DNA from: Alphaproteobacteria bacterium | Lineage (GTDB): Bacteria; Pseudomonadota; Alphaproteobacteria; Bin95 | Length of the DNA: 64,000 nt | Reading direction: 5' to 3' | NCBI GenBank assembly: GCA_964291285.2 | Contig: OZ219789.1 | Coordinates: 288,001 to 352,000 of the forward strand | Position numbers and translations under genes: made by a program | Part shown: in pieces, positions 12,921 to 57,875 of the stretch | Position numbering within the stretch: the first letter of the stretch is position 1 | How the letters are laid out: each line of letters starts with the position of its first letter | Notes under the pieces: generated by a model | The model's input: the letters and a program-made list of their open reading frames with translations, nothing else | What the model was told of the DNA's origin: nothing | The model's database searches: none

Positions 12921-14057
12921 ATGCGCATCCATGCCCCCGTCAACGAGCGGACGGTCCGCCGCACCTTCAGGGAGAAGAAACCCGGACGATACGGCCTGAC
13001 CGTCATCGACAGGGACCTGCCCGCCTTCGGCTTCACCGTCGCCGGGAACGGGACGAAGACCTTCTTCGTCCGGACCTCACGCCAGTTCGGCGCGCCCAAG
13101 GCGATCCTCGGCACGACCGACGACATGACCGCCGCCGAGGCGAGGGAGAAGGCCATTGCCGCCATCGCCGAAGCCAAAGCCGACCGCGAGACCGGGCCGC
13201 TGTTCGCCGACTTCGCGGCCGACTTCATGCGCCGCCAGGGGCGGCGCTGGAAACCCTCCACGAGGAAGGCCAACGCCCATCTGGTCGAGCGCGGCCTCGT
13301 GCCCTTCTTCGGCGCGATGCCCGTCGCGAAGATCGACCGCGCCGATGTGCGGCGCTGGTTCGATTCCCTCAGCGGCGCCCCCGGCAGCGCCAACCGGACC
13401 CTGCCGGTGCTCTCGGTGATGATGCGGCAGGCGGAGCTATGGGACCTTCGCCCGCAGGGCTCCAACCCCTGCCGCAACATGCGGCGCTACAGGACGGCGC
13501 CGCGCGAGCGGTTCCTGTCCCTGGACGAGTTGAAGCGCCTCGGCTTCGTCCTCGACCATGCCGAGGACCGGCAGGCCGCCGCCGCCATCCGCCTGCTGCT
13601 GTTCACCGGCGCCCGGTCGTCCGAGATCGCCAGCCTGCAATGGGACTGGATACGGGACACCCGCGCGGTGTTGCCGGACTCCAAGACCGGACCGAAGGCG
13701 CTCCAGCTTCCCCCGCCCGCGCGGGCCGTCCTGAATGGCCTGCCGCGCGAGGGACGCTTCGTCTTCCCGAACGGGAAGGGCGACGGCCCGATGACCGACC
13801 TCGGCCTGCGCTGGCAGAAGCTGCGCGGTCTCGCCGGGCTGGACGATGTGCGCATCCACGACTGCCGGCATACCTTCGCCTCCCATGCCGTGATGAGCGG
13901 CCTCGACCTCTACACCGTCGGCCGCCTGCTCGGCCATGCCGATACCGCCTCCACCGAACGCTACGCCCATCTCGCCGACGAGCATGTCCGCGAGGCGGCC
14001 GGGCGCATCTCCGGCATCGTCCACGGCGCCATGACCGGGAAGGAAAGCGGGCGATGA
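12921..14057 (+). CDS. Tyrosine recombinase with N-terminal arm-binding domain (pair A, first)
   Basis: TGARSSE, DSKTG, HDCRH, LLGH, RYAH catalytic motifs intact. Confidence 0.92.
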   Translation: MRIHAPVNERTVRRTFREKKPGRYGLTVIDRDLPAFGFTVAGNGTKTFFVRTSRQFGAPKAILGTTDDMTAAEAREKAIAAIAEAKADRETGPLFADFAADFMRRQGRRWKPSTRKANAHLVERGLVPFFGAMPVAKIDRADVRRWFDSLSGAPGSANRTLPVLSVMMRQAELWDLRPQGSNPCRNMRRYRTAPRERFLSLDELKRLGFVLDHAEDRQAAAAIRLLLFTGARSSEIASLQWDWIRDTRAVLPDSKTGPKALQLPPPARAVLNGLPREGRFVFPNGKGDGPMTDLGLRWQKLRGLAGLDDVRIHDCRHTFASHAVMSGLDLYTVGRLLGHADTASTERYAHLADEHVREAAGRISGIVHGAMTGKESGR

Positions 14058-15403
14058 GCGGCGGCAGGCATCGTGTCCGGCTCACCGTGAAGGCCGTCGC
14101 CGCCGCCAAGCCGGCGGAACGGGAATACACCCTGTGGGACAATCTGCTGGCGCATTTCGGGGTCAGGGTGCAGCCCTCCGGCGTCCGGTCCTGGATCGTC
14201 CAGACCCGCGTCCGGGGACGCATGCGCAAGATCACCCTCGGGCGCTTCCCCGAACTGCCTCTCGACGCGGCGCGCCGGGAAGGCGCAGCCGTGCTCGCCC
14301 GCCTGTGGGGCGGCGAGGACGTGACGCCGCCGCGCAAGGAGAAGGCGCCGCTGTTCCGGGACTTCGCCGCCCGTTACCGCTCGCGGCGGAAACACCGCTG
14401 GAAGCCGTCCTCGCTCAAGACCTTCGATAGCTACATGAAGAACCGCCTGATGCCGCATTTCGGCAGGCTCCGGCTCGACGCCATCGACCATGCGCGGGTC
14501 TCGGCATGGTTCGACGCCGCCAGCGCGGACAGGCCCGGCGCCGCCAACCGCGCCTTCGAGATACTCCGCGCCATGCTCGGGACGGCCCGGCAGTGGGGCG
14601 ACATCGGCGAGCATGTCCCCGATGCCTGCGCCAACATCGTGAAGAACCCCCGCAAGCCTGTCGCGCGTTACCTCAGCCGCGAAGAGCTGGAGCGTCTCGG
14701 CGCGGTGCTCGACCGCCACCGGAAGGAACACCCCTGGCCGGTGGCGGCCATCCGGCTGCTGACGCTCACCGGGGCGCGGCTCTCCGAAGTCATCAACCTC
14801 AGGTGGGACGAGATCGGAGAGTTGACCGGAGACGGCGCGAGCGCGCGCATCGAAGACTCCAAGACCGGGCCGCGCACCATCTGGCTCGGACCCGAAGCGG
14901 CAAGGCTGGTCGAGGCGCTGCCGCGACCGGATGGCCGGGAGCGGGTGTTCCCCGAGACCCTCACACCGGCAAGGCTCTACACCTTCTGGTGCGGTATCCG
15001 CGACGAGGCGGGGCTTCCGGGCCTTCGCATCCACGACTGCCGCCACACCTGGGCCTCGCAGGGCGTCATGAACGGCGTCGGGCTCACCACCGTCGGACGG
15101 CTGCTCGGACACCGCAAGCGGGAGACCACCGCGATCTACGCCCATCTCGACGATGGCGCGCTGCGGGTCGCCGCCGCCCAGGCCGCCGCCGTCATCGCGC
15201 GAGCGATGGGGTACAGGGCGGAGGCGCCTCCGCTGCCGGACGAGGCGGCGCACGGCGATGCATCGGCCGACATACCTGTGCCGTCCAGGCCCGGTGCGTC
15301 GGCATCACCGGAGGGAGGGCGATCCTCCCTCCGGGTCAGGACCGGGGATCCGGAGCGATCGGATGCAAGCATCCGCCGTAGACCGCAGGGTATCGGGATC
15401 TGA
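14054..15403 (+). CDS. Tyrosine recombinase with arm-binding domain (pair A, second)
   Basis: ATGA overlap with the first gene; EYTLWD..FGVRV arm domain; TGARLSE, HDCRH, LLGH, IYAH. Confidence 0.92.
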   Translation: MSGGRHRVRLTVKAVAAAKPAEREYTLWDNLLAHFGVRVQPSGVRSWIVQTRVRGRMRKITLGRFPELPLDAARREGAAVLARLWGGEDVTPPRKEKAPLFRDFAARYRSRRKHRWKPSSLKTFDSYMKNRLMPHFGRLRLDAIDHARVSAWFDAASADRPGAANRAFEILRAMLGTARQWGDIGEHVPDACANIVKNPRKPVARYLSREELERLGAVLDRHRKEHPWPVAAIRLLTLTGARLSEVINLRWDEIGELTGDGASARIEDSKTGPRTIWLGPEAARLVEALPRPDGRERVFPETLTPARLYTFWCGIRDEAGLPGLRIHDCRHTWASQGVMNGVGLTTVGRLLGHRKRETTAIYAHLDDGALRVAAAQAAAVIARAMGYRAEAPPLPDEAAHGDASADIPVPSRPGASASPEGGRSSLRVRTGDPERSDASIRRRPQGIGI

Positions 15404-15448
15404 GTTTGCGGCGGGCATGGAGCCGATCGGGGACCCTCAGGCGGGGTC

Positions 15449-15560
15449 TTTGCCGTGAAAATGGTTGGGGATCGGGCACACAAAAACCCCTCCCCGCCAA
15501 AGCACTGCTTCCGAGGCGTCCGATACTCGCCATCTGCGGCGCCCGTCTTGCGGATCGTGA
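15449..15560 (+). repeat. 112-bp direct repeat, copy 1
   Basis: Matches 28266-28377 with 3 mismatches. Confidence 0.9.
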
Positions 15561-18003
15561 ATCGAAGCCGCTGGACCGCATCGGCGAGGCCGCCATCCGG
15601 CGCTGGTTCGAGCGATACAGCCGCACCGCGCCGGGCAACGCCAATCCCTGCCTTGCCCGTCTGCGGCAGATACTCAACTTCGCCCTCGCCTGCGGCCACA
15701 TCGAGGTCAACCTAAATCCGGCAGTTGACGAGCTTGATCGCTGTCTCGGGGTAGTGTGAACGGTCGGATTTGGGCGTGGATTTCAGCACGTGGTCGCGGC
15801 CCTGGGTGGCGGCAGCCAGGGTTGACGCCCCGGTTCGCGGCCATGGAGGTATTTCCTGAGCGCCTCGGCGAGGATGCGGCGCCAGCGATCCCCGGCGCTC
15901 AACTGCTCCGCAGTTTGCGTCAGCGACCGGAAGAAGCCGGCGATCCGGCGCAGCGCCGCCATCACCGTCTTGCGACGCCCGTGATGGGAGGTCACCGTCA
16001 GCCGGGTCTGGCCGGCGTGGTGGGTCTGGCGGGCAACCCCGTGCAGGAGCAGCGGCCGGCTGGTGATCGCCTCGCGGTGATGGTCGGGGTCGGCGAGGCG
16101 CACGAACAGGCTCCACCAGTTGTAGATGAGCGCGATCAGCCGGGCCATGTGCCGGCAGCGCGTCAGGTCGCGCGTGGTGAAGCCGCCCCAACCCCACTGG
16201 TTCTTCAACTCGTCGAAGCCGTTCTCCGCGTCCGCCCGGTCGCGGTAGAGCTGGGCCAGCGAGCGTATCTCCAGGTCCAGCGAGGTCGCCAGCACCGCGA
16301 ACTCCCACACCCCGGTGCCGGGCTGCGCCTCGGTCCAGAACAGCTCGCCCTGGGCCTTGTCGCCACGCGTCAGCGCCAGCGTCGCAGGAAGCCGCCGACG
16401 CAGCACCACAACCCGGCGCGTCCGGCTCCAGCCCTGCAGACGCAGATCGGCCCCGATCCCCGACCAGCCCTGGCCTGCATCCTCCCAGCCGTCCCGCACC
16501 ATCAGCCGCTCGGCAAGCCGGCGCGCCCCCTTCGTCAGGCGCAGCTTGAACAAATAGTCCAGACCCGCAGCCTCGCACGACGCCATGTTGGCCTCGCTGC
16601 CCCAGTCCTTATCGCCCCGCACCAGACGCGGCCAGCGATCCCGACCGAGACGGTCGAGCAACGCCCACAAGGACGGCGCCGCGCGCCTCGAATGGTGATG
16701 GTTGCCCGGCGCCACCTCGACATCCAGAACAAGCCGCGTGCCCGCCATCAGGAACGCATGGCAGGCATGCGAGGGGCGGCCCGGCTTCTTCGGGTTGTAG
16801 CTCACAACCGCCCCCTCCTGACGACCGTAAAGCGCCTTGATCGTCGTGTCGCAGTCCAGAACCCACGGCTCCCTCAGCAGCGGACGGACCACCTCGTCCA
16901 GATGGCCCTGAAGCCACGATGTGCCGACATCCGCACCGATCCGCTCCAGACCGCGCCGCACCGAATCCTCGCTCGCAACCTTGTCCATACCCAGCAGCGC
17001 AGGGTTCACCCCGTCGCCGCGCAGCGACGTGATGTGCGCATAGCGAGACTGCCCCGCCAGAACCGACAGAAGAACCGTCCCCAGGACATCCCGCTTCGAC
17101 GGCGCGTTCGGGCTCGTGTAGTGCAGCGGGCAGTCCGCAACCAAAGCGTCAAAGCGACCGCTTACCTTCAGGTATTCCGAGAAAAACGCCAGATGCCCCA
17201 GCGGCGTCACCGCCGCATCAGGGTCCCATTCCACATGAACCGCGCCGCCGAAGGTGTCCACCTTCACCGACGCTCGGGCGACATCCCGCACAGCGCCAGG
17301 ATAATCACCCAAAGGGTGAGCCTCTTCGGCCCCTGAAAAGCCGCTCATACCCGCAGACTACAAGGGATTCGGCAAGGCCAAGCCATCCTCAACTGCCGGA
17401 TTTAGGGTCAATCCCGTCGGGCGCATCGCCCCGAACCGCCGCACGGCGCTCACGCGGTTCCTGTCCCGGGAGGAACTCGCACGCCTCCATGCCGCCTTGG
17501 ACGCGCAGACCCGGAAGAGCGCGCGGCAGCAGGCCGACATCGTCCGCCTCCTGCTGCTGACCGGCTGCCGCAGAAGCGAGATCACGGGCCTGCGCTGGTC
17601 CGAAGTCCGCGAGGACGGGCTGGCGCTCACCGATGCCAAGACCGGACCGAGGACGGTCCCGCTCGGCAGCGGGGCCCGGGCCATTCTCGACCGGCAGCCG
17701 CGCACGGGCAGCCCGTTCGTGTTTCCTTCGCCGTGCGACCCCGCCCGCCCGCGCAGCCCCGACCTGCCGCTCTGGTACCGCGTCAGACGCGAAGCCGGCA
17801 TCGGGGATGTCCGCCTTCATGACCTGCGCCATACCATGGCCAGCCATGCGGTGATGAACGGCGTGCCGGTCCCGGTGGTCTCCCGCCTGCTCGGGCATTC
17901 CAGTGTGCGCATGACGCTGCGCTACGCCCATCTCGCCGACCGCGACATCGAGGCCGCCGCGGAACGCGTCGGGCAGGCCATGAGCGCCGTGCTGGAGACA
18001 TGA
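15561..18003 (+). pseudogene. 5'-truncated tyrosine recombinase interrupted by an IS1380-like element
   Basis: KPLDRI...GHIEVN (15561-15710) continues as PVGRIAPNRR...HDLRH...RYAH after 17411; paralog of 56664-57875. Confidence 0.88.
15711..17406 (-). mobile_element. IS1380-like element copy 1 (1696 bp); transposase 15783-17348 (-), intact
   Basis: TIR CCTAAATCCGGCA; 5-bp TSD GTCAA; DDE motifs LDCDTT, VRGD, R..AENGFDELK. Confidence 0.9.
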
Positions 18004-18103: not shown

Positions 18104-19354
18104 TCAGAACTGTCGCACGAAGGAGAGTTCGGCGCGGTTTCGTTTGTAGTCGAGGGTCTGGGCGTTGGTATCGCGCTCCTCGCGGATGAGCGAGAGGCGG
18201 GGGCTGAAGCCGAGCACGGTGACGGCGCGGTTGTGCACGGAGAGCGAGAGGCTGCGCGTCTCGTCCCGGCGCGGCCTGCGGTCGATGGTGTTGTGGGCGA
18301 AGCCCTGTCCCTGGTATGCGGCGCGCTGCAGGGAGGCGCGCAGGCCGAGGGTGAAGCCGGCCGGCAGCGCGAGCGTCGCGCCGAGGCCGGCCCGGGGTCC
18401 GCGGTTGCGCCAGTGTCCGGCATTGGCGCGGGTCCAGTTGTATCCGGCATGGCCGCCGAGGCGCAGGACGGGCAGGGCGGCCCAGCTTGCGCCGAGCATC
18501 GCATCGCCCGCCGGGCCGTCGAGATGGTTGCAGCCGCGGCAGTTGCGCCGGGTGGCGCTGGCGTGGGCGAACATGAAGAGGCGCGGCGTCAGGCGGTGCG
18601 CGCCTTCCAGCCGGACGCCGAAGCGGTCGGTCTCGGGCCGCCCGGCGGTCCATTGCCGGTCCACCACCGCCAGCAGGCTCGCCTCCGTGCTCCCGTCGAT
18701 CAGCCGGCGCGGGCCGATATGGGCCGAGAGCGAATGGCGGTCGAACGCCCCGCCCTTGTATTCCCGCGCGCTGGCGTCCGCCCCGGCGCGCAGCCGCAGG
18801 GCCGACGACAACGGAACCTGGTATTCGCCGCCGCCCCACAGCGAGACGCCGATGCCCGACTTGCGCGACACGTCGCCGTCGAGGGTGAAGGGCAGGCGCC
18901 CGAACGGCGTGTCGAGAAAGACCGTGCGCTCCCCCGACGCGGCGTTGAGGTTGCTGTCGGGCGCCACCGCCAGGCCGAAATGCGCCTCCCAGCGCCGCCG
19001 CGCGCGCATGATGTCGAGGAAGCGCCAGATGTTGGCGGCCACCGCCGGCGGCGGCGTCCCCGCCAGCACCTGTTCGAAATGCCGCCGCGCCAGGCTGTCC
19101 TCCTCCTTCAGGAAGAAGGCGTGCGCGAGTTCGAGGCGCACCCGCACCAGGTCCGGGCGGTCCACCAGGATGGCCCGGAACGCCGCAATCGCCTCGTCGA
19201 GCTTCCCGTCGCGGGCGTCCCGGTCCGGAGCGGCCTGCGCGGCGGCAAGCGCCTCCATGCCCGCCCGGAACCGCTCGCCGGTCGCGTCCTGGCCGTGGGC
19301 GGCGGCGGCGAACAGGCACAGCCCGGCGGCAATGACGAGAGCGGGTATGCGCAT
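18104..19354 (-). CDS. Slam-family (type XI secretion) outer-membrane protein, copy 1
   Basis: Signal peptide, TPR-like RVRLELA..F, APDSNLN motif, beta-barrel ending SFVRQF; adjacent to a lipoprotein gene. Confidence 0.85.
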   Translation of the reverse strand: MRIPALVIAAGLCLFAAAAHGQDATGERFRAGMEALAAAQAAPDRDARDGKLDEAIAAFRAILVDRPDLVRVRLELAHAFFLKEEDSLARRHFEQVLAGTPPPAVAANIWRFLDIMRARRRWEAHFGLAVAPDSNLNAASGERTVFLDTPFGRLPFTLDGDVSRKSGIGVSLWGGGEYQVPLSSALRLRAGADASAREYKGGAFDRHSLSAHIGPRRLIDGSTEASLLAVVDRQWTAGRPETDRFGVRLEGAHRLTPRLFMFAHASATRRNCRGCNHLDGPAGDAMLGASWAALPVLRLGGHAGYNWTRANAGHWRNRGPRAGLGATLALPAGFTLGLRASLQRAAYQGQGFAHNTIDRRPRRDETRSLSLSVHNRAVTVLGFSPRLSLIREERDTNAQTLDYKRNRAELSFVRQF

Positions 19355-19469
19355 GAAAACCATTGTCCGTGCAAGGGGAACCTCCGGCAACCCGGAGGGC
19401 GCCGGAGGAAAGAAGGCCCCGGCCGCCTGAAGCAGCCGGGGCCCGAAAAGGTGATGCTCCGGGAGCCGG

Positions 19470-21215
19470 CTACTCTGCCGGCGCTTGTATCCTCGTCGAG
19501 AATCCGCCGGTGGCGCTCCCGTCCACGAAGTGGGTGATGAAGGTGCCTATCATGCCGGCCGGGCGCCCCGGGCCGCCCTGGTGGAAGGCTCCAGCCTGCC
19601 AACTGCCGGGCTTGTCGAAGGCGGTGCCGCCGCTGGAACCCGTGGCCAGACCTTCGACATCGAAGTTGTTGTTCGCGCCCTCCGCGAGCTTGACGCTCCA
19701 GTTCTCGTTGACGGCATTCCCCTTGAAGTTGTCGATCTTGCCTCCCATTTTACGGGCGCCTTCCTTCCCGAACTTGGCGTTGAGCGTCACATCCGCCGTG
19801 AACCGTGCGGACTTCTGCCCCGTGTGCTCGCCGGCGGTGTAGAGCTTCAGCGCCGACAGGCCAAAGGCTTCGCCCTTGTAGGTGGCGGTGGCGGGCAGAT
19901 CGGAGTTCACGCCTAACTCCCCGCGCTCGGGGGCAGGGCTGTCTGCGATGGCATGGACCTTGCTCCTTTCATCGCCATCTCCAGACAGCCAGTACCCGTA
20001 GCGGGCATATTCATTCCACTGCGTGTAGTGGGAGTTCCTCGGCGTTATCCAGTAGTAGCGATAGTGGCCCGCGTAGTTATCGTCGAATTCGTCGGCCGCC
20101 TTGAAGAACAGGTTGCCGGTCAGCTTGCCGCCAGGGGCAGAGCAGGTGCCCTGGCAATACAGCGTCCCCTTGACCCCCTTGTAATACTGGTCCCCGGAGA
20201 TGTCGGAGGGATACGCCGTCAGGACCGTTCCATCCGAGCCGGTGAGTGAGGACAGGGGCATCCCGGCAAGGGGCAGGACATCGACATCCATGTTGTCGGT
20301 GCCGAAAGCCTTCTTCACGAGCATCCCATCCTTGGCGGCAATCTGCTCCCAGGTCATGACGCCGGCCGGAAGTTCGCCGTCGTCATACTTGTGATAGAAC
20401 AGGGATCTCCGATCGGCGTTAGTCCCGGTGGCGATGACCTTCGTCGGCGGAGTACTGTTCCCACCGTCTTTGTAGAGATTTGACGGCCTGTGAAGCCACA
20501 TACTCGTGGATACGCCATCGTAACCGCCGGCGCGGGTGCCGGTACGAGCTGTTTCCGCAGGCGACAAGACAGCAAGCATCCGCCTCGCGGGCCTTGACGA
20601 ATTAAGGTTGTCGAAGCCAGCTGTAGCGAGGGTTTCGCCGGCGCGGTCCTTGATTTCCGCCTCGGTATCGACCCTCGAGAAATAGTCTCCGATCGTGCCG
20701 GCCCCGGTCAGGGTCTTCTCGATGGCCTTGATCTCCGCTTTCACTGTTTCGATCTGACCCGTGACCACCTTCTTCTGCGCCGCAAGGCCGGTCGTGCCGG
20801 CCGACAGGGCGTTCAGGTCCGTCTGCGCCTTCTCGGCCGCCTTCAGCGCCGCCTTGGCGTCCGCCAGCGCCTTGTCGGCCGCCGCCTTCGCGTCTTTCAC
20901 GAGCGCGGCGTTGGTCCGGACCACCGAACTGTCGCCTCCGGTGATGTACATTTGCCGAGAGAATTGGGGCGGCTCGACCGCCTTCTTGACCGCGGCCAGC
21001 TGAGCTTCCGCTTCCTTCCTGGCCGCCATCGCCGCCGTCTCGGCTGCCGCGGCGGCGTCGTAGGCCGCCTGCGCCTTCTGGACGTCCGTCATCTCCATCT
21101 GCTGGTCGCCGTCCATCGGCGCGGCCGCCTTCTTCCCGCCACCGCCTCCGCAGCCCGCGAGCGCCAGGCCCGCAGCGGCCATCGCCGCCAGAGCCACATG
21201 TCTCATGGTTCCCAT
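19470..21215 (-). CDS. TbpB-like surface lipoprotein, copy 1
   Basis: Lipobox LAGC + Gly linker, Ala/Lys coiled coil, C-terminal barrel TATYKGEA, FTADVTLNAKF, GKIDNF, GTFITHF..G.ATGGF. Confidence 0.85.
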   Translation of the reverse strand: MGTMRHVALAAMAAAGLALAGCGGGGGKKAAAPMDGDQQMEMTDVQKAQAAYDAAAAAETAAMAARKEAEAQLAAVKKAVEPPQFSRQMYITGGDSSVVRTNAALVKDAKAAADKALADAKAALKAAEKAQTDLNALSAGTTGLAAQKKVVTGQIETVKAEIKAIEKTLTGAGTIGDYFSRVDTEAEIKDRAGETLATAGFDNLNSSRPARRMLAVLSPAETARTGTRAGGYDGVSTSMWLHRPSNLYKDGGNSTPPTKVIATGTNADRRSLFYHKYDDGELPAGVMTWEQIAAKDGMLVKKAFGTDNMDVDVLPLAGMPLSSLTGSDGTVLTAYPSDISGDQYYKGVKGTLYCQGTCSAPGGKLTGNLFFKAADEFDDNYAGHYRYYWITPRNSHYTQWNEYARYGYWLSGDGDERSKVHAIADSPAPERGELGVNSDLPATATYKGEAFGLSALKLYTAGEHTGQKSARFTADVTLNAKFGKEGARKMGGKIDNFKGNAVNENWSVKLAEGANNNFDVEGLATGSSGGTAFDKPGSWQAGAFHQGGPGRPAGMIGTFITHFVDGSATGGFSTRIQAPAE

Positions 21216-21297
21216 CGAACCCTTCTCCTTCCTTCTCTCAAGCCCGGACAAACCGGGCAAACCGTTTGAACCGTTCCTTCGCCGCGCGAAACGCAGG

Positions 21298-22482: not shown

Positions 22483-22928
22483 CGTCTCGTCTCCTTCAGG
22501 TGAAAGCCCGTCCGCAGCGCCCGTCGACCGCCGCACGCCGGAGAAGGCGCACGACGGGGCGGCAGGTCACCGGGGACGGGAGGTGAAGCCGCGGCCCCGG
22601 AAAGGCCGCGGCAGAAAGCGTGACGGGGAAAGCCGGGCCGCCCGCAAGGCGGTCATGCCGCAAGCGCGGCGGGCGCGCTCCCGCGCGCTGCCCGGCAACC
22701 TGTCCATCTGCACGCGCCCGGCGCTCCTCCGCAGAGGACGCACAGGCGGGAAAGACAACAATCAGGCGGGAGAAGCTCTCCCGATGGCGAACCGGCTGAC
22801 CGGCGCCAAAAGCCCGCATGTGAAAGACATGAAGAGGCGCGAGGCGTATTCTACACCGTGTTCTACACCGTGTTCGAGCCGCTGAAGTCACGTCCGGGTA
22901 TACTCGCCGCTGAGATTGCCCAAAACCT

Positions 22929-25569: not shown

Positions 25570-25949
25570 AACCTAACCCGGCGCACGACACCGCACAAGC
25601 TCCCGGACCAACCCCCACGCCGATTTCACCGACATGTTGCATCCATGCCACAGTCAGCCGCCGACGGGCCCCCGCAAACCGGGCCCGCGGCGCCCATCGA
25701 CGACCGGCAGGCGCGGCTTTCTCCACCGGCGTGCAATGGAACGCAATGGAGCGTCCGCTGCCGCGTCTTCCCCACTCCAGGCCCGCCGCCGCCGCCAGCG
25801 GCGCATCGACAAATGCGCGCCCATTTCCCGCCGGCGGCGCCATCACCGCGCGCTGGCACCGCCCTTCTTCTCCGCCGCTCATGGACGCCGGACGCCCCCA
25901 AACGTCCATTGCCGGGCGGGTCGGCCACTCCGTATCATGAAAACAGGTG
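25570..25949 (-). repeat. Far upstream region of porin cassette 1; inverted repeat of ~28425-28804
   Basis: Near-identical reverse complement, giving identical translated spurious ORFs. Confidence 0.9.
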
Positions 25950-25951
25950 AA

Positions 25952-27647: not shown

Positions 27648-27655
27648 GTGAAGGA

Positions 27656-44050: not shown

Positions 44051-44074
44051 CGTGAAAACCGAAAGGAAAACGAC

Positions 44075-48886: not shown

Positions 48887-48887
48887 A

Positions 48888-50583
48888 CCTAAATCCGGCA
48901 TTTGAGGATGGCGTGGCCTTGCCCAATCCCTTGTAGTCTTCGGGTATGAGCGGCTTTTCAGGGGCCGAAGAGGCTCACCCTGTGGGTGACTGTCCTGGCG
49001 CTGTGCGGGATGTCGCCCGAGCGTCGGTGAAGGTGGACACCTTCGGCGGCGCGGTTCATGTGGAATGGGACCCTGATGCGGCGGTGACGCCGCTGGGCCA
49101 TCTGGCGTTTTTCGCGGAGTATCTGAAGGTGAGCGGTCGCTTTGACGCTTTGGTTGCGGACTGCCCGCTGCGGTACACGAGCCCGAACGCGCCGTCGAAG
49201 CAGGATGTCCCGGGGACGGTTCTTCTGTCGGTTCTGGCGGGGCAGTCTCGCTATGCGCACATCACGTCGCTGCGCGGCGACGGAGTGAACCCTGCGCTGT
49301 TGGGAATGGACAAGGTTGCGAGCGAGGATTCGGTGCGGCGCGGTCTGGAGCGGATCGGTGCGGATGTCGGCACATCGTGGCTTCAGGGCCATCTGGACGA
49401 GGTGGTCCGTCCGCTGCTGAGGGAGCCGTGGGTTCTGGACTGCGACACGACGATCAAGGCGCTTTACGGTCGTCAGGAGGGGGCGGTTGTGAGCTACAAC
49501 CCGAAGAAGCCGGGCCGCCCCTCGCATGCCTGCCATGCGTTCCTGATGGCGGGCACGCGGCTTGTTCTTGATGTCGAGGTGGCGCCGGGCAACCATCACC
49601 ATTCGAGGCGCGCGGCCCCGTCCTTGTGGGCCCTGCTCGACCGTCTTGGGCGGGATCGCTGGCCGCGTCTGGTGCGGGGCGACAAGGACCGGGGCAGCGA
49701 GGCCAACATGGCGTCGTGCGAGGCTGCGGGTCCGGACTATCTGTTCAAGCTGCGCCTGACGAAGGGGGCGCGCCGGCTTGCCGGGCGGCTGATGGCGCGG
49801 GACGGCTGGGAGGATGCGGGCCAGGGCTGGTCGGGGATCGGGGCCGATCTGCGTCTGCACGGCTGGAGCCGGACGCGCCGGGTTGTGGTGCTGCGCCGGC
49901 GGCTTCCTGCGACGCTGGCGCTGACGCGTGGCGACAAGGCCCGGGGCGAGCTGTTCTGGACCGAGGCGCAGCCCGGCACCGGGGTGTGGGAGTTCGCGGT
50001 GCTGGCGACCTCGCTGGACCTGGAGATACGCTCGCTGGCCCAGCTCTACCGCGACCGGGCGGACGCGGAGAACGGCTTCGACGAGTTGAAGAACCAGTGG
50101 GGTTGGGGCGGCTTCACCACGCGCGACCTGACGCGCTGCCGGCACATGGCCCGGCTGATCGCGCTCATCTACAACTGGTGGAGCCTGTTCGTGCGCCTCG
50201 CCGACCCCGACCATCACCGCGAGGCGATCACCAGCCGGCCGCTGCTCCTGCACGGGGTTGCCCGCCAGACCCACCACGCCGGCCAGACCCGGCTGACGGT
50301 GACCTCCCATCACGGGCGTCGCAAGACGGTGATGGCGGCGCTGCGCCGGATCGCCGGCTTCTTCCGGTCGCTGATGCAAACTGCGGAGCAGTTGAGCGCC
50401 GGGGATCGCTGGCGCCGGATCCTCGCCGAGGCGCTCAGGAAATACCTCCATGGCCGCGAACCGGGGCGTCAACCATGGCTGCCGCCACCCAGGACCGCGC
50501 CGACAGGCTGAAATCCACGCCCAAATCCGACTGTTCACACCGCCCCGAGACAGCGATCAAGCCCGTCAACTGCCGGATTTAGG
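48888..50583 (+). mobile_element. IS1380-like element copy 4; transposase 48946-50511 intact; no TSD
   Basis: Same TIRs; flanks CTGAA and ATTAG differ. Confidence 0.9.
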
Positions 50584-50646: not shown

Positions 50647-53142
50647 TCATGGTGCGCCTGTCGGAATGGCGATAGCTTCAATGTCGGCTCTCGTCTCAAT
50701 CATGGCTGAGATAGGCGTGTAGAGATCAACCTCGCTGTCCGCGCACCGCAAGGAGAGCACAAGCGAATAGCGCGCTTTCTGTCCTCGGACATCGGCCTTC
50801 GCGCGGTCCTTCCACCAGCCTCCGACCGGTTTGACGCAGATGATGTTCCGCGAGAGCAAATTGACTGCGGGCCCCGTCCATTGATCGCTGTGCAGCGACC
50901 CCGCCGACATCGATTGCGCGCCGAACAGCCACCGGTCACCGTCGGGATCTGTAGAAGGTCGATCATCCGAGTGCTCCCATGCCTGCTTGTTCAGCCGCTT
51001 TGCGAAATCGTTGGGCGCCTCTGATCGGCGCTTCAGGTCGAAGCGTAGCCCAAAGGACTGATAGCGATAGGGATCGAATGAGGCGGACGAACCCGGGTTA
51101 GGCTCGACAAAATACGACAGCGTGATTTTCAACGTGATGTCCTGCTCACCCAGACTTTCCAAGGCCTCCCGAGGCCAAGGCAACGAATAGAAGTGGCATT
51201 CGTTCATGCCCTTTCCGCTTCGACGGTATGGCTGAATTTCTGCTTGGGAAATCAATGCCAGGTGATTTCTCGCTGACGCTGCAGCACGCTCGAACGTCGG
51301 AACTCCGTGGCCGTATCGCCTCAGCAAGAGATAGGCAGCGCTCTTGCTACCGGCCGCCTGCAAGGCATCCGTCATCAAGGGGGTCCATTCCGCGCCGTGG
51401 ATCATCAAAGCTCGTACGGTCTCCGGCCAATAATGCGGAAATTCGGCCATCAGCCGTGCAGCCAGACGCGCTGCCTGCGCTGTCGCTGCGCTCGTCGCCC
51501 AAAACGAGACCAGCGGATTCTGATCGGTGTTCGGACCGGTTGAAAGAAGTGCCAGCGAATCGGCGTCATACACATCTCTTCCCGCGGGCGATATCACACG
51601 ATTGCCTGCTTCCATAACGATATCCGGCTTGAACGGCGTCTTGCCCTGAAGCCATTGGGTTGATGTTCGCGTATAGGGGCTGATGTCGCCTGCCTTGGCG
51701 TAGGGCGAGTAACCCTCGAATACCGGTTCCTGGATATTGACCCGATCAGTATATCCGCCAACCGTTATGGCGTTCCAAGCTTGGGCCGGGTCCTCGATTG
51801 GGAGCTCGTCTGCATCCCTTATCCGATGACTTTCGATCTCCTCCGGCGCATTACCCGCCGCGACGACAAACAGTCTCGGAGGCACTTGGTCACCAGTCTC
51901 GGTCACGCCGGCCGCTTCCTGGTCGATCGCTGCACTCCAAGTCGTTGGTCGCTCGCCCGTTCGGTCCTCATTAGTCACCGCCATACAAAACACCCTGCGA
52001 CGGTCCGGTTGCTCGGTTTCCGGTAATGCCACAGCCTGTTTTGTAATCGCGCCGTAGAATCGCTCTTCGGTCGGCTCGAACCCATTCGGCGGAAGTATCT
52101 TGACCGACTCAAGACGGTGGGTCAGGGATGGGATGTCGGCACCTGCCAGATGTGGGGTCAAATCTCCGAACAGCGCAAGCCCCGCCATCCCGGTGCCGTG
52201 GCCATGCGGGGAGTCGGCAACCCCCCATTCGGCTTTCACCGCGGCCAAATCCGCTTCCGCGAGTGCAGGCTCGATCAAGATGTGGGCACGATTCACCCCT
52301 GTATCGAGAAGACAGACCGCCGGAACATCCATGCCCGGCCATTCGGTTCGTTCTGACAATTCCTCGCAGACGTCCCGTTGTTCATCACGGTCGATATCGT
52401 CCAAAAAGAAGACTGGGCTATCGCTTGCACTCCGCAGCTCGACAATCGAAAGGCGCGCGAACAGCATCAGTTCGATAGTTGCCCTGTCGGTCAGAACCGG
52501 CAGCACAACATGTTCGGGAAAATACAGGCGTTGCTCGCGATCAGCCGCACGCGCTCCGAGCCTGGCGATTAACTGCTCAAGCTCGTCTTCCAACGCACGA
52601 ACGCACCAGACTTCCCACCACATTTCCTGGCCCGGCTGCGGAAGTTTCGACGGATCGTCAGTCCAAAATGTCTCAAGACGAGCCGCACGGATGGACTCAA
52701 TGGGATCGACGAAATCCTTTCGCCGGGGTTTTCTTCCCTTGGGGGTAAGCTCGCCTTCCTGATATTCGCGAAGGATGTCCTCGAACGCCTTGCGCGACTC
52801 ATCGGGAACATATAAACCGACGATCCTGTTCTCGTTCGTATCGAGCTTGGCGGCTCCCGGCTTGATACGATCGGCCTTTCGTTCGACTGCATCGACACGG
52901 GACCCCCGCTTCAACTCGACTTCAAGAAAAGCGCCCTGCGGTGGGTCCAGTCTCGGGTCCTCGCGCCTTGCGGCATCGAATGCCCGATAGGAAACGGCAA
53001 GTTCCCCACGGAGCTTCGCGCCATGCTCCTCACGGCTGCGCGGCGTGCCGGCGCCAATCGGATTTGAGGCAGCCGACGTAAACGGCGCGACTTGGAGCCG
53101 CCGCGACAAATCAATGTGCGGGAGGTCGTAAGGAGGTGCCAC
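50647..53142 (-). CDS. S8 subtilisin-like peptidase (IetS-like)
   Basis: LLDTGV, HGTGMAG, AAGN, ATSAA triad regions; follows an AAA ATPase. Confidence 0.88.
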   Translation of the reverse strand: MAPPYDLPHIDLSRRLQVAPFTSAASNPIGAGTPRSREEHGAKLRGELAVSYRAFDAARREDPRLDPPQGAFLEVELKRGSRVDAVERKADRIKPGAAKLDTNENRIVGLYVPDESRKAFEDILREYQEGELTPKGRKPRRKDFVDPIESIRAARLETFWTDDPSKLPQPGQEMWWEVWCVRALEDELEQLIARLGARAADREQRLYFPEHVVLPVLTDRATIELMLFARLSIVELRSASDSPVFFLDDIDRDEQRDVCEELSERTEWPGMDVPAVCLLDTGVNRAHILIEPALAEADLAAVKAEWGVADSPHGHGTGMAGLALFGDLTPHLAGADIPSLTHRLESVKILPPNGFEPTEERFYGAITKQAVALPETEQPDRRRVFCMAVTNEDRTGERPTTWSAAIDQEAAGVTETGDQVPPRLFVVAAGNAPEEIESHRIRDADELPIEDPAQAWNAITVGGYTDRVNIQEPVFEGYSPYAKAGDISPYTRTSTQWLQGKTPFKPDIVMEAGNRVISPAGRDVYDADSLALLSTGPNTDQNPLVSFWATSAATAQAARLAARLMAEFPHYWPETVRALMIHGAEWTPLMTDALQAAGSKSAAYLLLRRYGHGVPTFERAAASARNHLALISQAEIQPYRRSGKGMNECHFYSLPWPREALESLGEQDITLKITLSYFVEPNPGSSASFDPYRYQSFGLRFDLKRRSEAPNDFAKRLNKQAWEHSDDRPSTDPDGDRWLFGAQSMSAGSLHSDQWTGPAVNLLSRNIICVKPVGGWWKDRAKADVRGQKARYSLVLSLRCADSEVDLYTPISAMIETRADIEAIAIPTGAP

Positions 53143-53288
53143 GACTCAGAGACCGTTTGAGAATGCCTTCAACGGATAACTCCAGTCCGCTCGAGAAGCC
53201 CAAAGTGCCGGAAATCGTGGCTTTGGAGATGCTGCAGCGAGAAAAATGGGCACCGCGCCGAACCTCGATTCTATTCTCAAACGGACTG

Positions 53289-54296
53289 TCAGGTCGAACC
53301 CGGCGCGCCAGTGAAAGCCTCGCGCATCTCCCGACGTTCATCAAGGGCACCTACAACGTCGCGTGTTGTAAGTCGGCCCCGTTCATCCAGTATCGCGGTC
53401 TTCACCGCTTTCTCCGCTGCGCAGGCAAGTTCGGACTGGCTCAGGCCGCGCCCCGCATCGAGGATCCGTTTCCAAGCAAGATTTGGATACTTCATGGGCC
53501 TGAGATAAGCCTTGATGACCCCGCGTATCTCATCGTCGGTCGGCATCTCGAACGGCAGAACCATATCAAACCGTCGAAGCAATGCCCGATCAAGAAGGTC
53601 GGGATGATTGGTCGCACCGACGATGAGGCTGTCCGTCGCGTTCGGCTCTTCCATGAATTGCAGGAACGAGTTGAGGACCCTGCGCATCTCGGCGACATCG
53701 TTGGATGCGCTGCGATGCCCGCCAACGGCATCGAATTCGTCGAAGAGATAGACGCCGCGGCGTTTCGCCGTTTCATCGAATACGAGACGCAGTTTCGCGG
53801 CCGTCTCTCCCATGAAGCGCGTAATGAGCGCCTCCAGGCAGATGACGAACAACGGCAGTTTCAAGGCGCTGGCTAGTGCCTCTGCAGTCATGGTTTTTCC
53901 GGATCCCGGCGGCCCGACGAACAGAAGTCGTCGGCTGGGCGTTTTCCCGTGCTCACGAAGCCAGTCCCTGCGCACCTGTTCTCGAATCAGACCATCGAGT
54001 TGGCCCCGGAGCGAAGTGTTGAGCACGACGTCGTCAAGACGATACGAGGATCTGCGTACTTCTATGAGGCCGGCGAGTTCGCCGCGTGGCGTAGCGAACG
54101 GAACAGCGATCGTTTGCCCCTGACCGGAAAAACGGGTACGGGCAGTCTCTACGGCCTCCCGAAGCTCTTGCGCCAGACTGCGACGCCCTTGGCGAGCCTC
54201 GGACGCGGCGGCTTGGAGTGCGACGGTGAAAAACCGATCCTCATCGCCTGCAGCCTGACTGCGTAACATCTCAAGTATGTGCTTCGCACTGGACAT
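53289..54296 (-). CDS. AAA+ ATPase (IetA-like)
   Basis: GPPGSGKT, LFDEFD, ATNHPDLLDRALLRRFD. Confidence 0.9.
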   Translation of the reverse strand: MSSAKHILEMLRSQAAGDEDRFFTVALQAAASEARQGRRSLAQELREAVETARTRFSGQGQTIAVPFATPRGELAGLIEVRRSSYRLDDVVLNTSLRGQLDGLIREQVRRDWLREHGKTPSRRLLFVGPPGSGKTMTAEALASALKLPLFVICLEALITRFMGETAAKLRLVFDETAKRRGVYLFDEFDAVGGHRSASNDVAEMRRVLNSFLQFMEEPNATDSLIVGATNHPDLLDRALLRRFDMVLPFEMPTDDEIRGVIKAYLRPMKYPNLAWKRILDAGRGLSQSELACAAEKAVKTAILDERGRLTTRDVVGALDERREMREAFTGAPGST

Positions 54297-54556
54297 CTTC
54301 GGGAATGGTAGCATCTTCGTCTGAAAGTACAGCCAGCAATTCTCATGGAGAAATTTGCGCTGTGGGGTTTTTCCGGTCGGATGGGACGTTGGGTCCGGGT
54401 GGTGATGTTGTTTGTTCCGGCGTTCGAGGCGGTCGCTGCGGTTGATTTTCGAGCTTGAGCGGCCCAGCCCGGTAGCATCGCCGGCCCTCGGTCGCGGGTG
54501 TCCGTATGCCGGGGTCCGGCGGGTTGGGTCAGCGTTGTCGGCAGCCGGCTGAGGGG

Positions 54557-55420
54557 TCAGCCGGTATCGAGGTATGGCACCGGGCCGACCAGGGAGCGCA
54601 TGCGTGCGACGCGTCCGGCGCGGGCCTGTGCAAGCGCCATGGCCATCATGACCGCGAGCGCCATGCCGAGGCGTGTCTTCATCTTCGCGCGTCCGCGGAT
54701 GTAGTGGGTCTCGAAGTTGAAGCTGCGGTCGAGGCGGGCGTTGATCCGCTCCATGGCGGTGCGCCGGTTGTATCCGCGCCGCCACGACGGGCTGCCCCAG
54801 GGCGTGGGCGTGAAGATACGCCGGTCATGGCTGTCGAGGTCGACGCGCAGGATGCGGCCGTATTCGCCGGACTTCACCCCACCCGCCCGATGGCAGGCCC
54901 GGCGTCCCTTGCACTCGAAGCCGAAGGCGGCTGCGGGGCAGCGGTATTTGAGCGTGCCGCAGACGCCGCGCCCGGCCTCGAACCCCTGGAAGGCCATGGC
55001 GCGGACCTCGCCGGTCTGCGGGCACACGCAGGACACCCGGCCGCGTTCGTCATGAACGATGACGTCGGCGCGCCCGGGGAACAGCGGTCGCGTGATCGGC
55101 CGGGCCGGGTCATGGCCCGGCTCCTTCTTCTCGACCCGCCACATCAGGCGCGTGTCGATCAGCGGGCGGATATGCCACCTGTCCCACAACCGCGCCTTCA
55201 GGCGGGCGTTGTCGAGACCGCGGTCGGCGCTGAAGGTGGCGCAGCGCCCGGCCATCTCCGGCGCCCCGGCGAACAACTCCTCCACCATCCCGGACAGCGC
55301 CCCGGGCTCGGACGCCGACGCCCGCGTCACCTCGAAGGCCACAGGAACCTCGTAGTCCGTGTCGGCGATCAGGTGAAGCCCGTAGCCGAACCACGACTTC
55401 ACCTTCTTCCACACCGCGCC
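54557..55420 (-). pseudogene. 5'-truncated DDE transposase (IS5/IS4 superfamily)
   Basis: WFGYGLHL, ADRGLD, Y.RR...ERINARL; candidate terminal sequence CAGCAATTCTCATGGAGAAA at ~54334. Confidence 0.75.
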
Positions 55421-55539
55421 CGCACCGGTGGGTGCTAACTATCTGACGCAGCGTCGTTTTTTCTCCCGAAATGCAGCGGTCGGGCAAGCGGGTCGCAAGG
55501 GCCCGTTCCCCGGCTGCAACCGGAGCCGGGAGAAACGCA

Positions 55540-56664
55540 ATGGCGAAGACTACCCTTACCGAGGCGCGCGTGAAGGCGCTCAAGCCCCGCAGGTCCGTCC
55601 GCGAGGTCCGCGACGGCAGGCTGAGGGGGTTCGGCGTCCGTGTGTCGCCCTCGGGCCGCAAGCAGTTCTTCATCCACTGCCAGCATCGCGGCGTGCGCAT
55701 CTGGAAGATCGTCGGCGACGCCGGGTCGATGAGCGTCACGGACGCGCGGTCTGCGGCTGCGGACATGCTTGCCGCCATCAGGCGCGGCGGGGAGGCGCCG
55801 CCTGCGCCGGACGAGACGCTCTTCGAGGCCGTCGCCGAAACCGTGTTCGAGCGCCATGCGCGCCTCTGGAAGGCCGGAACGCTCGCTGTCAACCGCAGCT
55901 ATCTTCGCTGCCAGATCCTGCCGCATTTCGCGGGACGGCAAGTCGCGGACATCGACCGGCTGGAGGTAAGGAACTGGTTCGCCCGCCTGCGCGCGACGCC
56001 GGTGGCGGCGGACCGGTCGATGCCGGTGCTGTCCGTCATCATGAGGGAGGCGGAGGCCATGGGCCTGCGCCCGGAGGGTTCCAACCCCTGCCGGGGCATC
56101 AGGCGCTACCGCCGCAAGGGCCGCGAGCGGTTCCTCCCGGACGAGGAAATCCGCCGCCTGTCCGCACGGCTCAAGGCGCATGAGGCCCGCTGGCCGCAGC
56201 ATGTTGCCGTCATCCGCCTGCTGCTGCTGACCGGCTGCCGCAAGGGCGAGATCCTCACCCTGCAATGGTCCGATTACCGCGAAGGCCGCCTGTTTCTCCG
56301 CGATTCCAAGACGGGGCCGAGAACCGTCTGGCTGTCGGAGCCGGCCCGGACGGTGCTTGATCGTCTCGAGCGGAAGGGGCGATGGATATTCCCCGCATCT
56401 CGGGGCGACCGGCCCCGGAGCGGAAGCTGGCTGGACCACTTCTGGCGCAGGGTCCGCGCCGAGGCGGCGCTCGAAGACGCCCGCCTTCACGATTTGCGCC
56501 ATACGCATGCGAGCCTTGCCCTCAGGCAGGGCGTGACGGTGCTCGCCATCGGCCGGCTGCTGGGCCACCGCAGGCCGGAAACCACGCTGAAATATACCCA
56601 TGTCGCCGACGCCATGGTGCAGGACGCAGCCGAGACGGTCGGCGCCGTGCTGGAGGCAGACTGA
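55540..56664 (+). CDS. Tyrosine recombinase with arm-binding domain (pair C, first)
   Basis: GFGVRVSPSGRK arm domain; TGCRKGE, DSKTG, HDLRH, LLGH, KYTH. Confidence 0.92.
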   Translation: MAKTTLTEARVKALKPRRSVREVRDGRLRGFGVRVSPSGRKQFFIHCQHRGVRIWKIVGDAGSMSVTDARSAAADMLAAIRRGGEAPPAPDETLFEAVAETVFERHARLWKAGTLAVNRSYLRCQILPHFAGRQVADIDRLEVRNWFARLRATPVAADRSMPVLSVIMREAEAMGLRPEGSNPCRGIRRYRRKGRERFLPDEEIRRLSARLKAHEARWPQHVAVIRLLLLTGCRKGEILTLQWSDYREGRLFLRDSKTGPRTVWLSEPARTVLDRLERKGRWIFPASRGDRPRSGSWLDHFWRRVRAEAALEDARLHDLRHTHASLALRQGVTVLAIGRLLGHRRPETTLKYTHVADAMVQDAAETVGAVLEAD

Positions 56665-57875
56665 TGGCGGGCCGGGAACGGATGAAACTCACCGACGCCG
56701 CCGTCGCCCGTCTCCGCCCCCGCGAGCGGGAATATACGGTCTGGGACACGCGCATCGCCGGTCTCGGCGTCCGGGTGCGGCCCACCGGCGGGCGCAGCTG
56801 GGTGCTGCTGCTCGACAGCGGCGGGCGCACCAGGCGCGTCTCGCTCGGCCCGGTTGGCGTGAAGAGCGCCGCCGAAGCCCGCCGGGAGGCTCTCGAGCGC
56901 CAGGCGGCCCCGCAGCCGGAGGAGACAGCCGCGCCGCCCGGCGCGGCCCCGCTGTTCCGGAATTTCGTCGCGGGTTCGTGGAAGCAGGCACACTTCGACC
57001 GCTACAAGCCGTCGGGCCAGCAAACCGCGTCCGGAATACTCCGGCGACAATTGCTTCCCGCATTCGGCCCGAAGCCGCTCGACCGCATTGCGCCGGGCCA
57101 TGTCCGGCAGTGGTTCGACCGCTACAGCCGGACCGCACCCGGCGGCGCCAACCGCGCTTTCACCCTCCTTCACCAGATCATGAACTTCGCCCTCGCCTGC
57201 GGTCATGTCGAGGTCAATCCGGCCAGGGACACAAGAAGGAACCGCCGCCCGGCACTCACACGGTTCCTGTCCCGGGAGGAACTCGTCCGCCTCCATGCCG
57301 CCCTGGACGCGCAGACCCGGCAGGGTGCGCGGCGGCAGGCCGACATTATCCGCCTCCTGCTGCTGACCGGCTGCCGCAGAAGCGAGATCACGGGCCTCGG
57401 CTGGTCGGAAGTCCGCGAGGACGGGCTGGCGCTCACCGATGCCAAGACCGGACCGAGGACGGTCCCGCTCGGCAGCCGGGCCCGGGCCATTCTCGACCGG
57501 CAGCCGCGCACGGGCAGCGCGTTCGTGTTTCCCTCGCCGCGCGACCCCGCCCGCCCGCGCAGCCCCGACCTGCCGCTCTGGTACCGCGTCAGACACGAAG
57601 CCGGCATCGGGGATGTCCGCCTTCACGACCTGCGCCATACCATGGCCAGCCATGCGGTGATGAACGGCGTGCCCGTCCCGGTGGTCTCCCGCCTGCTCGG
57701 CCATTCCGATGTGCGCATGACGCTGCGCTACGCCCATATCGCCGACCGCGACATCGAGGCCGCCGCGGAACGCGTCGGGCAGGCGATGGCGCGGGCCATG
57801 GGGACGGACCGGCAAGGCCCCGGCGAGGGCTGGCCGGTCCCTGGCCTCCCGTGGCCCGCCCGGCCTTCGTCATGA
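56664..57875 (+). CDS. Tyrosine recombinase with arm-binding domain (pair C, second)
   Basis: TGATG overlap; TGCRRSE, DAKTG, HDLRH, LLGH, RYAH. Confidence 0.92.
   Translation: MAGRERMKLTDAAVARLRPREREYTVWDTRIAGLGVRVRPTGGRSWVLLLDSGGRTRRVSLGPVGVKSAAEARREALERQAAPQPEETAAPPGAAPLFRNFVAGSWKQAHFDRYKPSGQQTASGILRRQLLPAFGPKPLDRIAPGHVRQWFDRYSRTAPGGANRAFTLLHQIMNFALACGHVEVNPARDTRRNRRPALTRFLSREELVRLHAALDAQTRQGARRQADIIRLLLLTGCRRSEITGLGWSEVREDGLALTDAKTGPRTVPLGSRARAILDRQPRTGSAFVFPSPRDPARPRSPDLPLWYRVRHEAGIGDVRLHDLRHTMASHAVMNGVPVPVVSRLLGHSDVRMTLRYAHIADRDIEAAAERVGQAMARAMGTDRQGPGEGWPVPGLPWPARPSS

Follow-up and report, generated by a model that had tools for sequence, protein, structure and literature searches.

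Analysis of a 64,000-nucleotide stretch of an alphaproteobacterial genome (GenBank assembly GCA_964291285.2, contig OZ219789.1, positions 288,001 to 352,000 of the forward strand; hereafter the window, to which positions without a contig name refer) identifies recurrent pairs of adjoining genes for arm-type tyrosine recombinases, int1 and int2. The paired integrases are probably the integration and excision module of an integrative island, mobilizable in its larger copies, in which the products of int1 and int2 act jointly. An earlier note on this DNA had proposed a mobile unit with two integrases and varied cargo, and this reading is supported because the copies have sharp ends, direct repeats and empty sites and because the two genes are paired and co-diverge; cargo also differs among the copies. 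Integrase-borne islands are usually seen as single-enzyme, single-site elements that occur once or twice per genome; new here are integrase-borne islands with an obligate-looking two-integrase module and transposon-like behaviour.

Integrase pairs of the window and their boundaries

The window lies within a 449-kb contig of a genome of 6.1 Mb (68% G+C, five contigs). Pairs or parts of pairs occur in it four times, and are of two types, A and B:

12718-12920, plus strand: left end and leader of the type A unit (CACACC at 12718-12723, palindrome GCATC-CTT-GATGC at 12728-12740)
12921-14057, plus strand: type A int1, 378 amino acids, arm-type tyrosine integrase
14054-15403, plus strand: type A int2, 449 amino acids, ATGA overlap with int1
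15404-15560, plus strand: stretch 3' of type A int2 that is common to other A copies and ends where the remnant of a B-type int2 starts
15563-15710 and 17433-18003, plus strand: remnant of a B-type int2 (within 15563-18003), from about codon 137 to the end
36835-38685, minus strand: decayed B-type pair, 92% identical in DNA to type B at 55959-57792 by self-comparison
54348-55420, plus strand: left part of an insertion sequence (IS) split by the type B element (1073-bp repeat; target ACACCGCGCC at 55411-55420)
55421-55539, plus strand: left end and leader of the type B element (palindrome CGCACC-GGTG-GGTGC at 55422-55435, TAACTATCTGAC, T-run)
55540-56664, plus strand: type B int1, 374 amino acids
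56664-57875, plus strand: type B int2, 403 amino acids, whose start shares one base with the int1 stop (TGATG)

The coordinates and overlaps of the two intact pairs agree with the earlier note, as does its observation that both genes of each pair keep the arm domain and the catalytic motif R-K-H-R-H-Y, legible in all four translations. All four proteins match Phage_integrase, Phage_int_M/SAM_3 and Arm-DNA-bind_3, the arm match of type A int1 (24.2 bits) lying under the Pfam cut-off of 27. Pair A was correctly described as a distant relative of pair B (identity 41% for int1 and 40% for int2), and the decayed pair and second-gene remnant reported in the same note were recovered. In the decayed pair, int2 (36835-37978) is frameshifted, with open reading frames 37016-37978 and 36835-37203 in separate frames, and int1 survives as its 3' part alone (37982-38685), its first ~140 codons and the left end being lost; a 1.7-kb IS that encodes a DDE_Tnp_1_4 transposase (15707-17410, minus strand) sits inside the remnant. 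Bases 15449-15560 are repeated at 28266-28377 according to self-comparison, and the junction of the A unit with the remnant at 15560 is repeated on contig C1 of the genome, there without the IS.

Homology among 21 B-type loci has a common starting point, to within a few bases, some 115-130 bp 5' of int1, and it stops near the last codons of int2. The left boundary is sharp to the base and reads: flank, ACAC(C), 5-7 variable bases, CGCACC, 3-4 bases, GGTGC, TAACTATCTGAC, T-run; the target, summarized as ACAC(C)-N4-6, recurs after the right end. Genome-wide there are 23 genuine B-type left ends, with flanks that are all unrelated; of 40 loci from other genomes, most have this architecture 5' of int1 as well. 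Among copies that agree in cargo, a second boundary is equally sharp (...GTCAGATAGTGCCCTAAC...GAGATTTACAC, followed by unrelated flank), which defines a conserved right end of about 450 bp that terminates in GAGATTTACAC; the type B right-end word is GTCAGATAG. Genuine right ends number 14 in the genome, also with unrelated flanks, and none is in the window. Where left and right ends could be matched on the same contig and strand, B elements are flanked by direct repeats of 10-13 bp that begin with ACACC:

36-kb element: ACACCCCTGAAC
38.7-kb element: ACACCTTCCA
11-kb element: ACACCGCGCC
21.6-kb element: ACACCACGGCCGC
8.2-kb element: ACACCAG[C/A]GAG
10-kb element: ACACCCG[A/G]GAG

Empty sites are available for the 8.2-kb element and for the B copy of the window. 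The two flanks of the 8.2-kb element abut, with an overlap of 9-11 bp, in 11 of 16 other genomes of the genus, and the unoccupied attachment site (attB) in one of them, ACACCAGCGAG, is the same as the left attachment site (attL) of the element, the right one (attR) being different by one base. The IS that hosts the B copy of the window is present 28 times: 24 copies are uninterrupted at the target ACACCGCGCC, running from ...CCACACCGCGCC into GGTCTTCG..., and in the other four a B-type left end breaks the IS at precisely this point; three right ends bear the other half of this IS. The abutting flanks in relatives and the uninterrupted copies of the host IS establish the B-type unit as a discrete insertion. 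In two elements the difference between attL and attR falls at position 8 of the 11-bp repeat, which suggests that the crossover region includes this position and can accommodate mismatches, as it does in elements of the Tn916 or CTnDOT type. On a metagenome contig (locus L090, 1100-1296), a related element has its left end directly against the stop codon region of a chromosomal gene. The last nine bases of the target there are GATTTACAC, identical to the right-end terminus of that element, which hints at a likeness between this terminus and the left half of the target. Words of the 8.2-kb locus were recovered at 52-75% in three sequencing runs and as shares of 0.05-0.07 in 18 metagenome runs; shares as small as the latter are no evidence of habitat.

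The type A boundary was derived from an alignment of 11 copies, which have three unrelated groups of upstream flanks. It is sharp, lies about 205 bp 5' of int1, and consists of CACACC, 4-5 bases and GCATC-CTT-GATGC. The block shared by these copies measures just ~2.6-2.8 kb and comprises the left end, both genes and 50-140 bp beyond. Upstream of seven of these copies, out of 11, lies a diverged Toprim/YspA-like module (73-82% identity, vs 95-98% for the pair). Its terminus, ...TTT..CACAC, closely resembles a B-type right end, so that insertion of type A into the end of other islands may be frequent. The window itself contains two diverged copies of a module composed of SSB or Toprim plus YspA-like (YAcAr) genes, at 7875-12610 and 42425-45314 (72-80% identity). 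The former stops at the start of the type A unit, and its terminus, ..GGTTTGGCACAC, resembles the B-type right end.

The GC-rich hairpin that the earlier note had placed before the first ATG of both intact pairs is present at 12860-12891 in type A (z -2.7) and as two hairpins, 55488-55506 and 55507-55533, in type B (z -1.8), the latter pairing with the GGGAG ribosome-binding site. In 32 leaders the most frequent 5-mer is GCAAC, with 50 occurrences that peak at -24, -45 and -65 relative to the int1 start codon, and its extended form TGCAAC (55515-55520 in the window's B leader) occurs one to three times per leader at intervals of about 21 bp. TGCAAC is nearly invariant about 24 bases 5' of the int1 start, and the repeats at -45 and -65, spaced by some two helical turns, recur in several loci. 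RNAalifold found no consensus pairs in the 32 leaders; by eye, the stem 5' of the ribosome-binding site appears to shift register between subfamilies. Judged from sequence, the TGCAAC words are candidate sites for the arm domains and the hairpin at the ribosome-binding site is a candidate for self-regulation.

Pairing and co-divergence within and across genomes

Comparison of the four window proteins with the whole genome (tblastn) yields 11 pairs of type A (92-100% amino acid identity; 97-100% for the 11 copies of int1), more than 25 pairs of type B (52-100%), four pairs of a third type (37-39%) and several broken copies. The genome total is 38 intact pairs and one in which a 4-kb insertion splits int2; the order is always int1-int2, on one strand, with 0-56 bases between the genes. 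Scripted pairing joined 33 pairs, and each of the six leftover full-length genes has a partner in the tblastn table. The sole unpaired related integrase in the genome is a 28%-identical gene with nine copies, which belongs to something else. Recent movement is evident from two elements with the Slam cassette described below, which are 99.8% identical and have unlike flanks (C3 1616829-1625030, the 8.2-kb element, and C5 390363-400404). The base at position 8 of attR in the C3 element (A) is the attL base of the C5 element; this single base is a very weak hint that an element may have moved from the C5 site to the C3 site and brought its crossover bases along.

A scan of one genome per species, in which adjacency was not used for selection, returned 77 loci, nearly all in metagenome-assembled genomes, from Alphaproteobacteria (including Defluviicoccus, Paracoccaceae/Rhodobacteraceae and Sphingomonadales), Gammaproteobacteria, Acidobacteria, orders of Gemmatimonadota, a Spirochaetia record and Binatia. 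The genes do not occur mostly singly elsewhere: 75 of the 77 loci have a second co-oriented integrase gene or fragment directly beside the first, as has every full-length copy in the source genome, and of the two unpaired loci one has a truncated int1 and the other lies at a contig end. Stacked or broken copies appear to account for the loci with three or more matches. In 61 pairs both alignments are stop-free and at least 250 amino acids long, and both genes retain R-K-H-R-H-Y. By residue the count is 62-63 of 63 for first genes and 59-63 of 63 for second genes; alignment gaps and one serine in place of the tyrosine explain the misses.

The earlier note had expected first and second genes to form co-diverging clades, and they do. 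Within the genome, int1 and int2 of types A and B fall into separate clades with mirrored internal order (quick tree, SH-aLRT 84-100), and a joint tree across genomes places 59 of 63 first genes in one clade with support of 0.99. Across genomes, the pairwise distances of int1 and int2 are correlated with r = 0.95 (1953 comparisons). The pairs are not chance neighbours, and the pair is old and co-inherited. Median dN/dS values of 0.19-0.38 for all four genes indicate, at the level of sequence, that both genes are under purifying selection.

Distant relatives include a pair on the megaplasmid of Shewanella oneidensis MR-1 (L092, record 32496-34993), in which the genes overlap by four bases and are 37% and 31% identical to type A. 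The sequence CCACACCCCACGC lies about 170 bp 5' of its int1, and twelve of its bases, CACACCCCACGC, equal the type A boundary of the window. A lone relative, 39% identical and unpaired, is located on the megaplasmid of Ruegeria sp. TM1040. At loci L044, L047-L050, L053, L055, L058, L061 and L064, from Acidobacteria, Gemmatimonadota orders and the Spirochaetia record, both pair genes match from residue 88-95 onward only (57-64% identity to type B). Both open reading frames of L044 begin exactly at the core-binding domain, and loci of this kind appear to be pairs in which both members are arm-less. No left-end motif was seen directly 5' of these relatives in two loci.

Cargo and genomic setting

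Three stretches of cargo can be assigned to B-type pairs of the window:

18104-22928, minus strand: Slam cassette of the remnant element (Slam 18104-19390, lipoprotein with LAGC lipobox 19470-21260, porin 21298-22536)
28800-33610, plus strand: second Slam cassette, cargo of the decayed pair (porin 29180-30415, lipoprotein 30453-32210, Slam 32327-33610)
57876-64000, no strand assigned: cargo of the B element (HEAT gene 57994-59340, RTX gene 61444-63309, others), continuing past the window

Cargo converges on the second gene, twice with a Slam cassette and once with the HEAT gene, as had been noted before: the Slam gene at 18104-19390 (minus strand) faces the remnant, that at 32327-33610 (plus strand) faces the decayed pair, and the HEAT gene (minus strand) faces pair B. 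The two Slam cassettes are inverted copies of each other by self-comparison (18193-22928 and 33488-28800), each 3' of a B-type int2. Homology of the remnant's cassette to other copies stops at 22928, where there is no right end; homology of the B element to sister copies reaches about 5.9 kb past the end of the window, and no right end for it was found on its contig. The cassette consists of Slam (SlipAM and TPR_Slam domains), a 596-residue lipoprotein with an LAGC lipobox and no Pfam match, and a Porin_4 porin. At least nine copies lie 3' of B-type pairs in the genome, three times as convergent inverted duplicates. The second cassette is separated from the decayed pair by a 3.2-kb block (33489-36695) with an IS66-family transposase gene (33574-35739) and an overlapping DruA-domain gene (35628-36617), an insertion also present on contig C2.

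Across the genome, B-type copies sort into cargo groups 3' of int2 (Slam cassette; HEAT gene with RTX genes; TrwC relaxase module), and the C-terminal tail of int2 varies with cargo. The 8.2-kb copy contains int1, int2, the Slam gene, the LAGC lipoprotein gene and the porin gene; its last 1.4 kb has no convincing open reading frame and no small gene near the right end, and the copy contains no further recombination gene, no separate excisionase gene and no relaxase. The 36-kb copy carries two RTX-repeat genes and genes for a 1970-residue fibronectin-III protein, a TrwC relaxase-helicase and an ADP-ribosylglycohydrolase, together with IS21, and two NikA-like genes adjoin its right end; no secretion-system genes were found among 15 proteins scanned. 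Because of its TrwC relaxase and NikA-like genes, the larger copies look like integrative mobilizable elements (IMEs), and the small copies look like stripped derivatives.

The window as a whole, in which no tRNA genes were found, is a patchwork of mobile DNA on the Pfam map:

624-5141: strawberry-notch-type helicase
8963-10054: Toprim/DUF7146 gene
10690-11856 and 44012-44992: two YspA-like genes
elsewhere in the window: an SSB gene and a NikA-like gene; IS66-like, IS1595-like and Transposase_29 genes
15707-17410 (minus strand), 25948-27651, 40717-42424 and 48884-50583: four copies, 97-99% identical, of the 1.7-kb IS with the DDE_Tnp_1_4 transposase

A gene for an 831-residue subtilase (Peptidase_S8) adjoins one for a 498-residue AAA ATPase (50647-54785, minus strand). 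This stretch is low in G+C (58-62%), lies immediately left of the host IS of the B element, and may be cargo of a different element. Beside the IS1595-family transposase gene, at 47546-48886, an N6_N4_Mtase DNA methylase is fused to a C-terminal HNH nuclease domain.

Mechanism, alternatives and relation to known elements

In the mechanism that we propose, the element would excise as a circle, and the circle would recombine with short ACACC-containing sites to leave direct repeats of 10-13 bp. Transposon-like behaviour and multiplication within a genome would follow from the target being short and loosely specified. The products of int1 and int2 would work together, most likely as a heterotetramer resembling that of XerC and XerD, each protein reading one half of an asymmetric core and cutting one pair of strands; the leader repeats would serve as binding sites for the arm domains, and the leader might autoregulate the int genes. 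Such a mixed tetramer fits because the two sides of the crossover are unlike (right end ...GAGATTTACAC vs left end CGCACC-N4-GGTGC) and because the two recombinases are translationally coupled and catalytically complete.

Joint action of the two proteins is an inference to which structure prediction, proposed in the earlier note, adds a weak argument. The predicted int1-int2 complex has an ipSAE of 0.46 (runs 0.43, 0.46 and 0.55) against 0.00 for the best control, with partner pLDDT of at least 75 and agreement among runs in at least 52% of contacts. The ipSAE mark is reached by 116 of 157 solved complexes and by 2 of 215 mismatches, but values at or below 0.60 account for only 18 of the 157 and for both mismatches, so that the expected heterodimer is predicted weakly. 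The pass may also mirror likeness to solved tyrosine-recombinase assemblies rather than binding, since such assemblies exist.

Several observations count against the interpretation as a mobile unit moved by both proteins. None of the window's four copies is a complete element, and the window contains no right end. One pair of ends (C3 1579048 / 1587241) is a poor fit, mismatched at three of 11 repeat positions, and the GAG half of the target is seen in only four of 14 right junctions and so is not general. The circular intermediates that the earlier note had suggested looking for did not appear: neither a circular form nor a restored site was seen, the junction pattern (right-end word, gap, left-end words) having no match in 17 genomes of the genus. 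Its two matches in metagenome contigs were rejected as circles: one is best read as a plain left end that adjoins a chromosomal gene ending by chance in GATTTACAC, and the other has no integrase leader after the match. Alignment of flanks gave type B its sharp ends, direct repeats and empty sites but gave type A no right end, the 45 kb downstream of its 11 copies sharing IS only, and a search for inverted copies of the interior of its left end returned other left ends only. Type A copies often lie on the downstream side of a diverged Toprim/YspA-like module, so that the status of type A as an independent element derives solely from its sharp left boundary. Large segmental duplication, not recombination at attachment sites, clearly spread some copies; the region of the decayed pair recurs on contig C2, and the arrangement of A unit plus remnant on C1.

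These duplicated blocks that include pairs, the many copies broken by IS and the unmatched numbers of ends (23 left, 14 right) are what might be expected if homologous recombination and segmental duplication had multiplied a decaying island that no longer moves site-specifically. Such an origin is very improbable for the family in view of the unrelated flanks, base-sharp boundaries, common ACACC word and matching short repeats, the precise empty sites in 11 relatives and 24 IS copies, the 99.8%-identical copies in different flanks, and the purifying selection on both genes. Stacking of two single-integrase elements by tandem insertion would agree with the established tendency of integrative elements to accumulate at one site and with the frequent position of type A behind the end of another module; we consider it scarcely credible, given that the genes overlap by 1-4 bases with no attachment site between them, that the empty sites show both genes to have arrived as one piece, and that the pairs combine a distance correlation of r = 0.95 with adjacency in 75 of 77 loci.

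A stronger competitor, which we nevertheless regard as unlikely, is a division of labour without a mixed complex, in which one protein is the integrase proper and the other governs excision or directionality, acts as a regulator, or resolves tandem or dimeric forms. Since the 8.2-kb copy has no separate excisionase gene, something else must set the direction of recombination, and both the variation of the int2 tail with cargo and the weakness of the complex prediction are compatible with unequal roles. An accessory role for either protein is harder to reconcile with the presence of all six catalytic residues in both members of nearly all of the 61 pairs and of arm, core-binding and catalytic domains in both; translational coupling moreover suggests roughly equal amounts of the two proteins, and the asymmetric crossover flanks fit two different binders.

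Joint action of the pair remains the preferred interpretation. In its fullest form, put forward tentatively, the islands would be an old transposon-like class, so far undescribed, whose movement depends on arm-type integrases in an obligate heteromeric pair and whose core site needs about five fixed bases (ACACC) and tolerates crossover mismatches; if true, this would explain the roughly forty copies per genome, the landing of copies inside IS and coding genes, and the occurrence in several phyla. The two-integrase islands combine a co-evolving integrase pair, a very short target and copy numbers like those of insertion sequences with surface-protein cassettes, relaxase modules and other cargo. 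Current family libraries label them as two generic 'integrase' genes only; annotators could mark them by the left-end signature (ACACC, 5-7 bases, CGCACC, 3-4 bases, GGTGC, two overlapping integrase genes).

None of the mobile element families that the literature search brought up corresponds by description to the two-integrase islands. Accounts of paired arm-type integrases as one module were not found in full-text literature, a scope that leaves out most subscription journals; the matches were work on Xer, Tn554, RIT, GInt and strand-biased circularizing integrative elements (SE), and phage genome notes that mention two integrases. Gene contents of Tn554, SE, GInt, RIT and the bipartite module (BIM) are taken from the portions of PMC3414803, PMC10214605 and PMC8138268 drawn on here. 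In these portions, Tn554 has two adjacent tyrosine recombinases that are both needed, a target preference and a short core, together with a third gene, tnpC; one recombinase is of ordinary size and one is large, and an arm-type N-terminal domain is not described (PMC3414803, PMC10214605). In contrast to Tn554 as so described, the present units have only two genes, of similar size and with arm domains, and the 8.2-kb copy has no third gene resembling tnpC. SE has the four core genes intA-tfp-intB-srap, GInt has ginA-D and RIT has three tyrosine recombinases, and movement of all three depends on several tyrosine recombinases at the left end, according to the same partial source (PMC10214605). 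The islands described here likewise have several tyrosine recombinases at the left end; unlike in SE and GInt, as far as that source describes them, int1 and int2 overlap with nothing between them, and unlike in RIT there are two genes per unit, which agrees with the earlier note that neither the RIT nor the Tn554 layout matches. BIM of Cupriavidus, a conserved two-gene module with one tyrosine recombinase, was rejected as a match, its second gene encoding a protein of unknown function that is listed in the consulted part of the source as an SMC-domain protein and not as a recombinase (PMC3414803). The window integrases pass no NCBIfam model, and the score for GmtZ, the gamma-mobile-trio integrase, is 24.6 bits against a cut-off of 600.

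With the P4-like (DUF4102, Arm-DNA-bind_3) integrases of islands, integrative and conjugative elements and IMEs, the present proteins share arm, core-binding and catalytic domains; the islands share the position of the integrase beside one end, short flanking direct repeats and, in IMEs as in the larger copies, a relaxase. P4-like islands have one integrase and usually target a tRNA-type gene. Here, by contrast, each operon has two co-diverging integrases, adjacent in all 39 genome copies and in 75 of 77 loci elsewhere; the ACACC targets lie in IS and other DNA rather than at the 3' ends of tRNA or tmRNA genes, and there are about forty copies per genome. XerC and XerD at dif are similar in being two paralogous, catalytically complete recombinases that act on a core with two unlike halves, an arrangement that in the present islands belongs to the model. 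The window proteins are not members of that family (NCBIfam scores of 41-75 bits against cut-offs of ~330), and to our knowledge Xer proteins have no arm domain and are encoded by chromosomal housekeeping genes, not in mobile units. If int1 and int2 do form a mixed complex, the pair would be the mobile-element counterpart of XerC/XerD and a possible source of recombinases with split, perhaps reprogrammable, site recognition.

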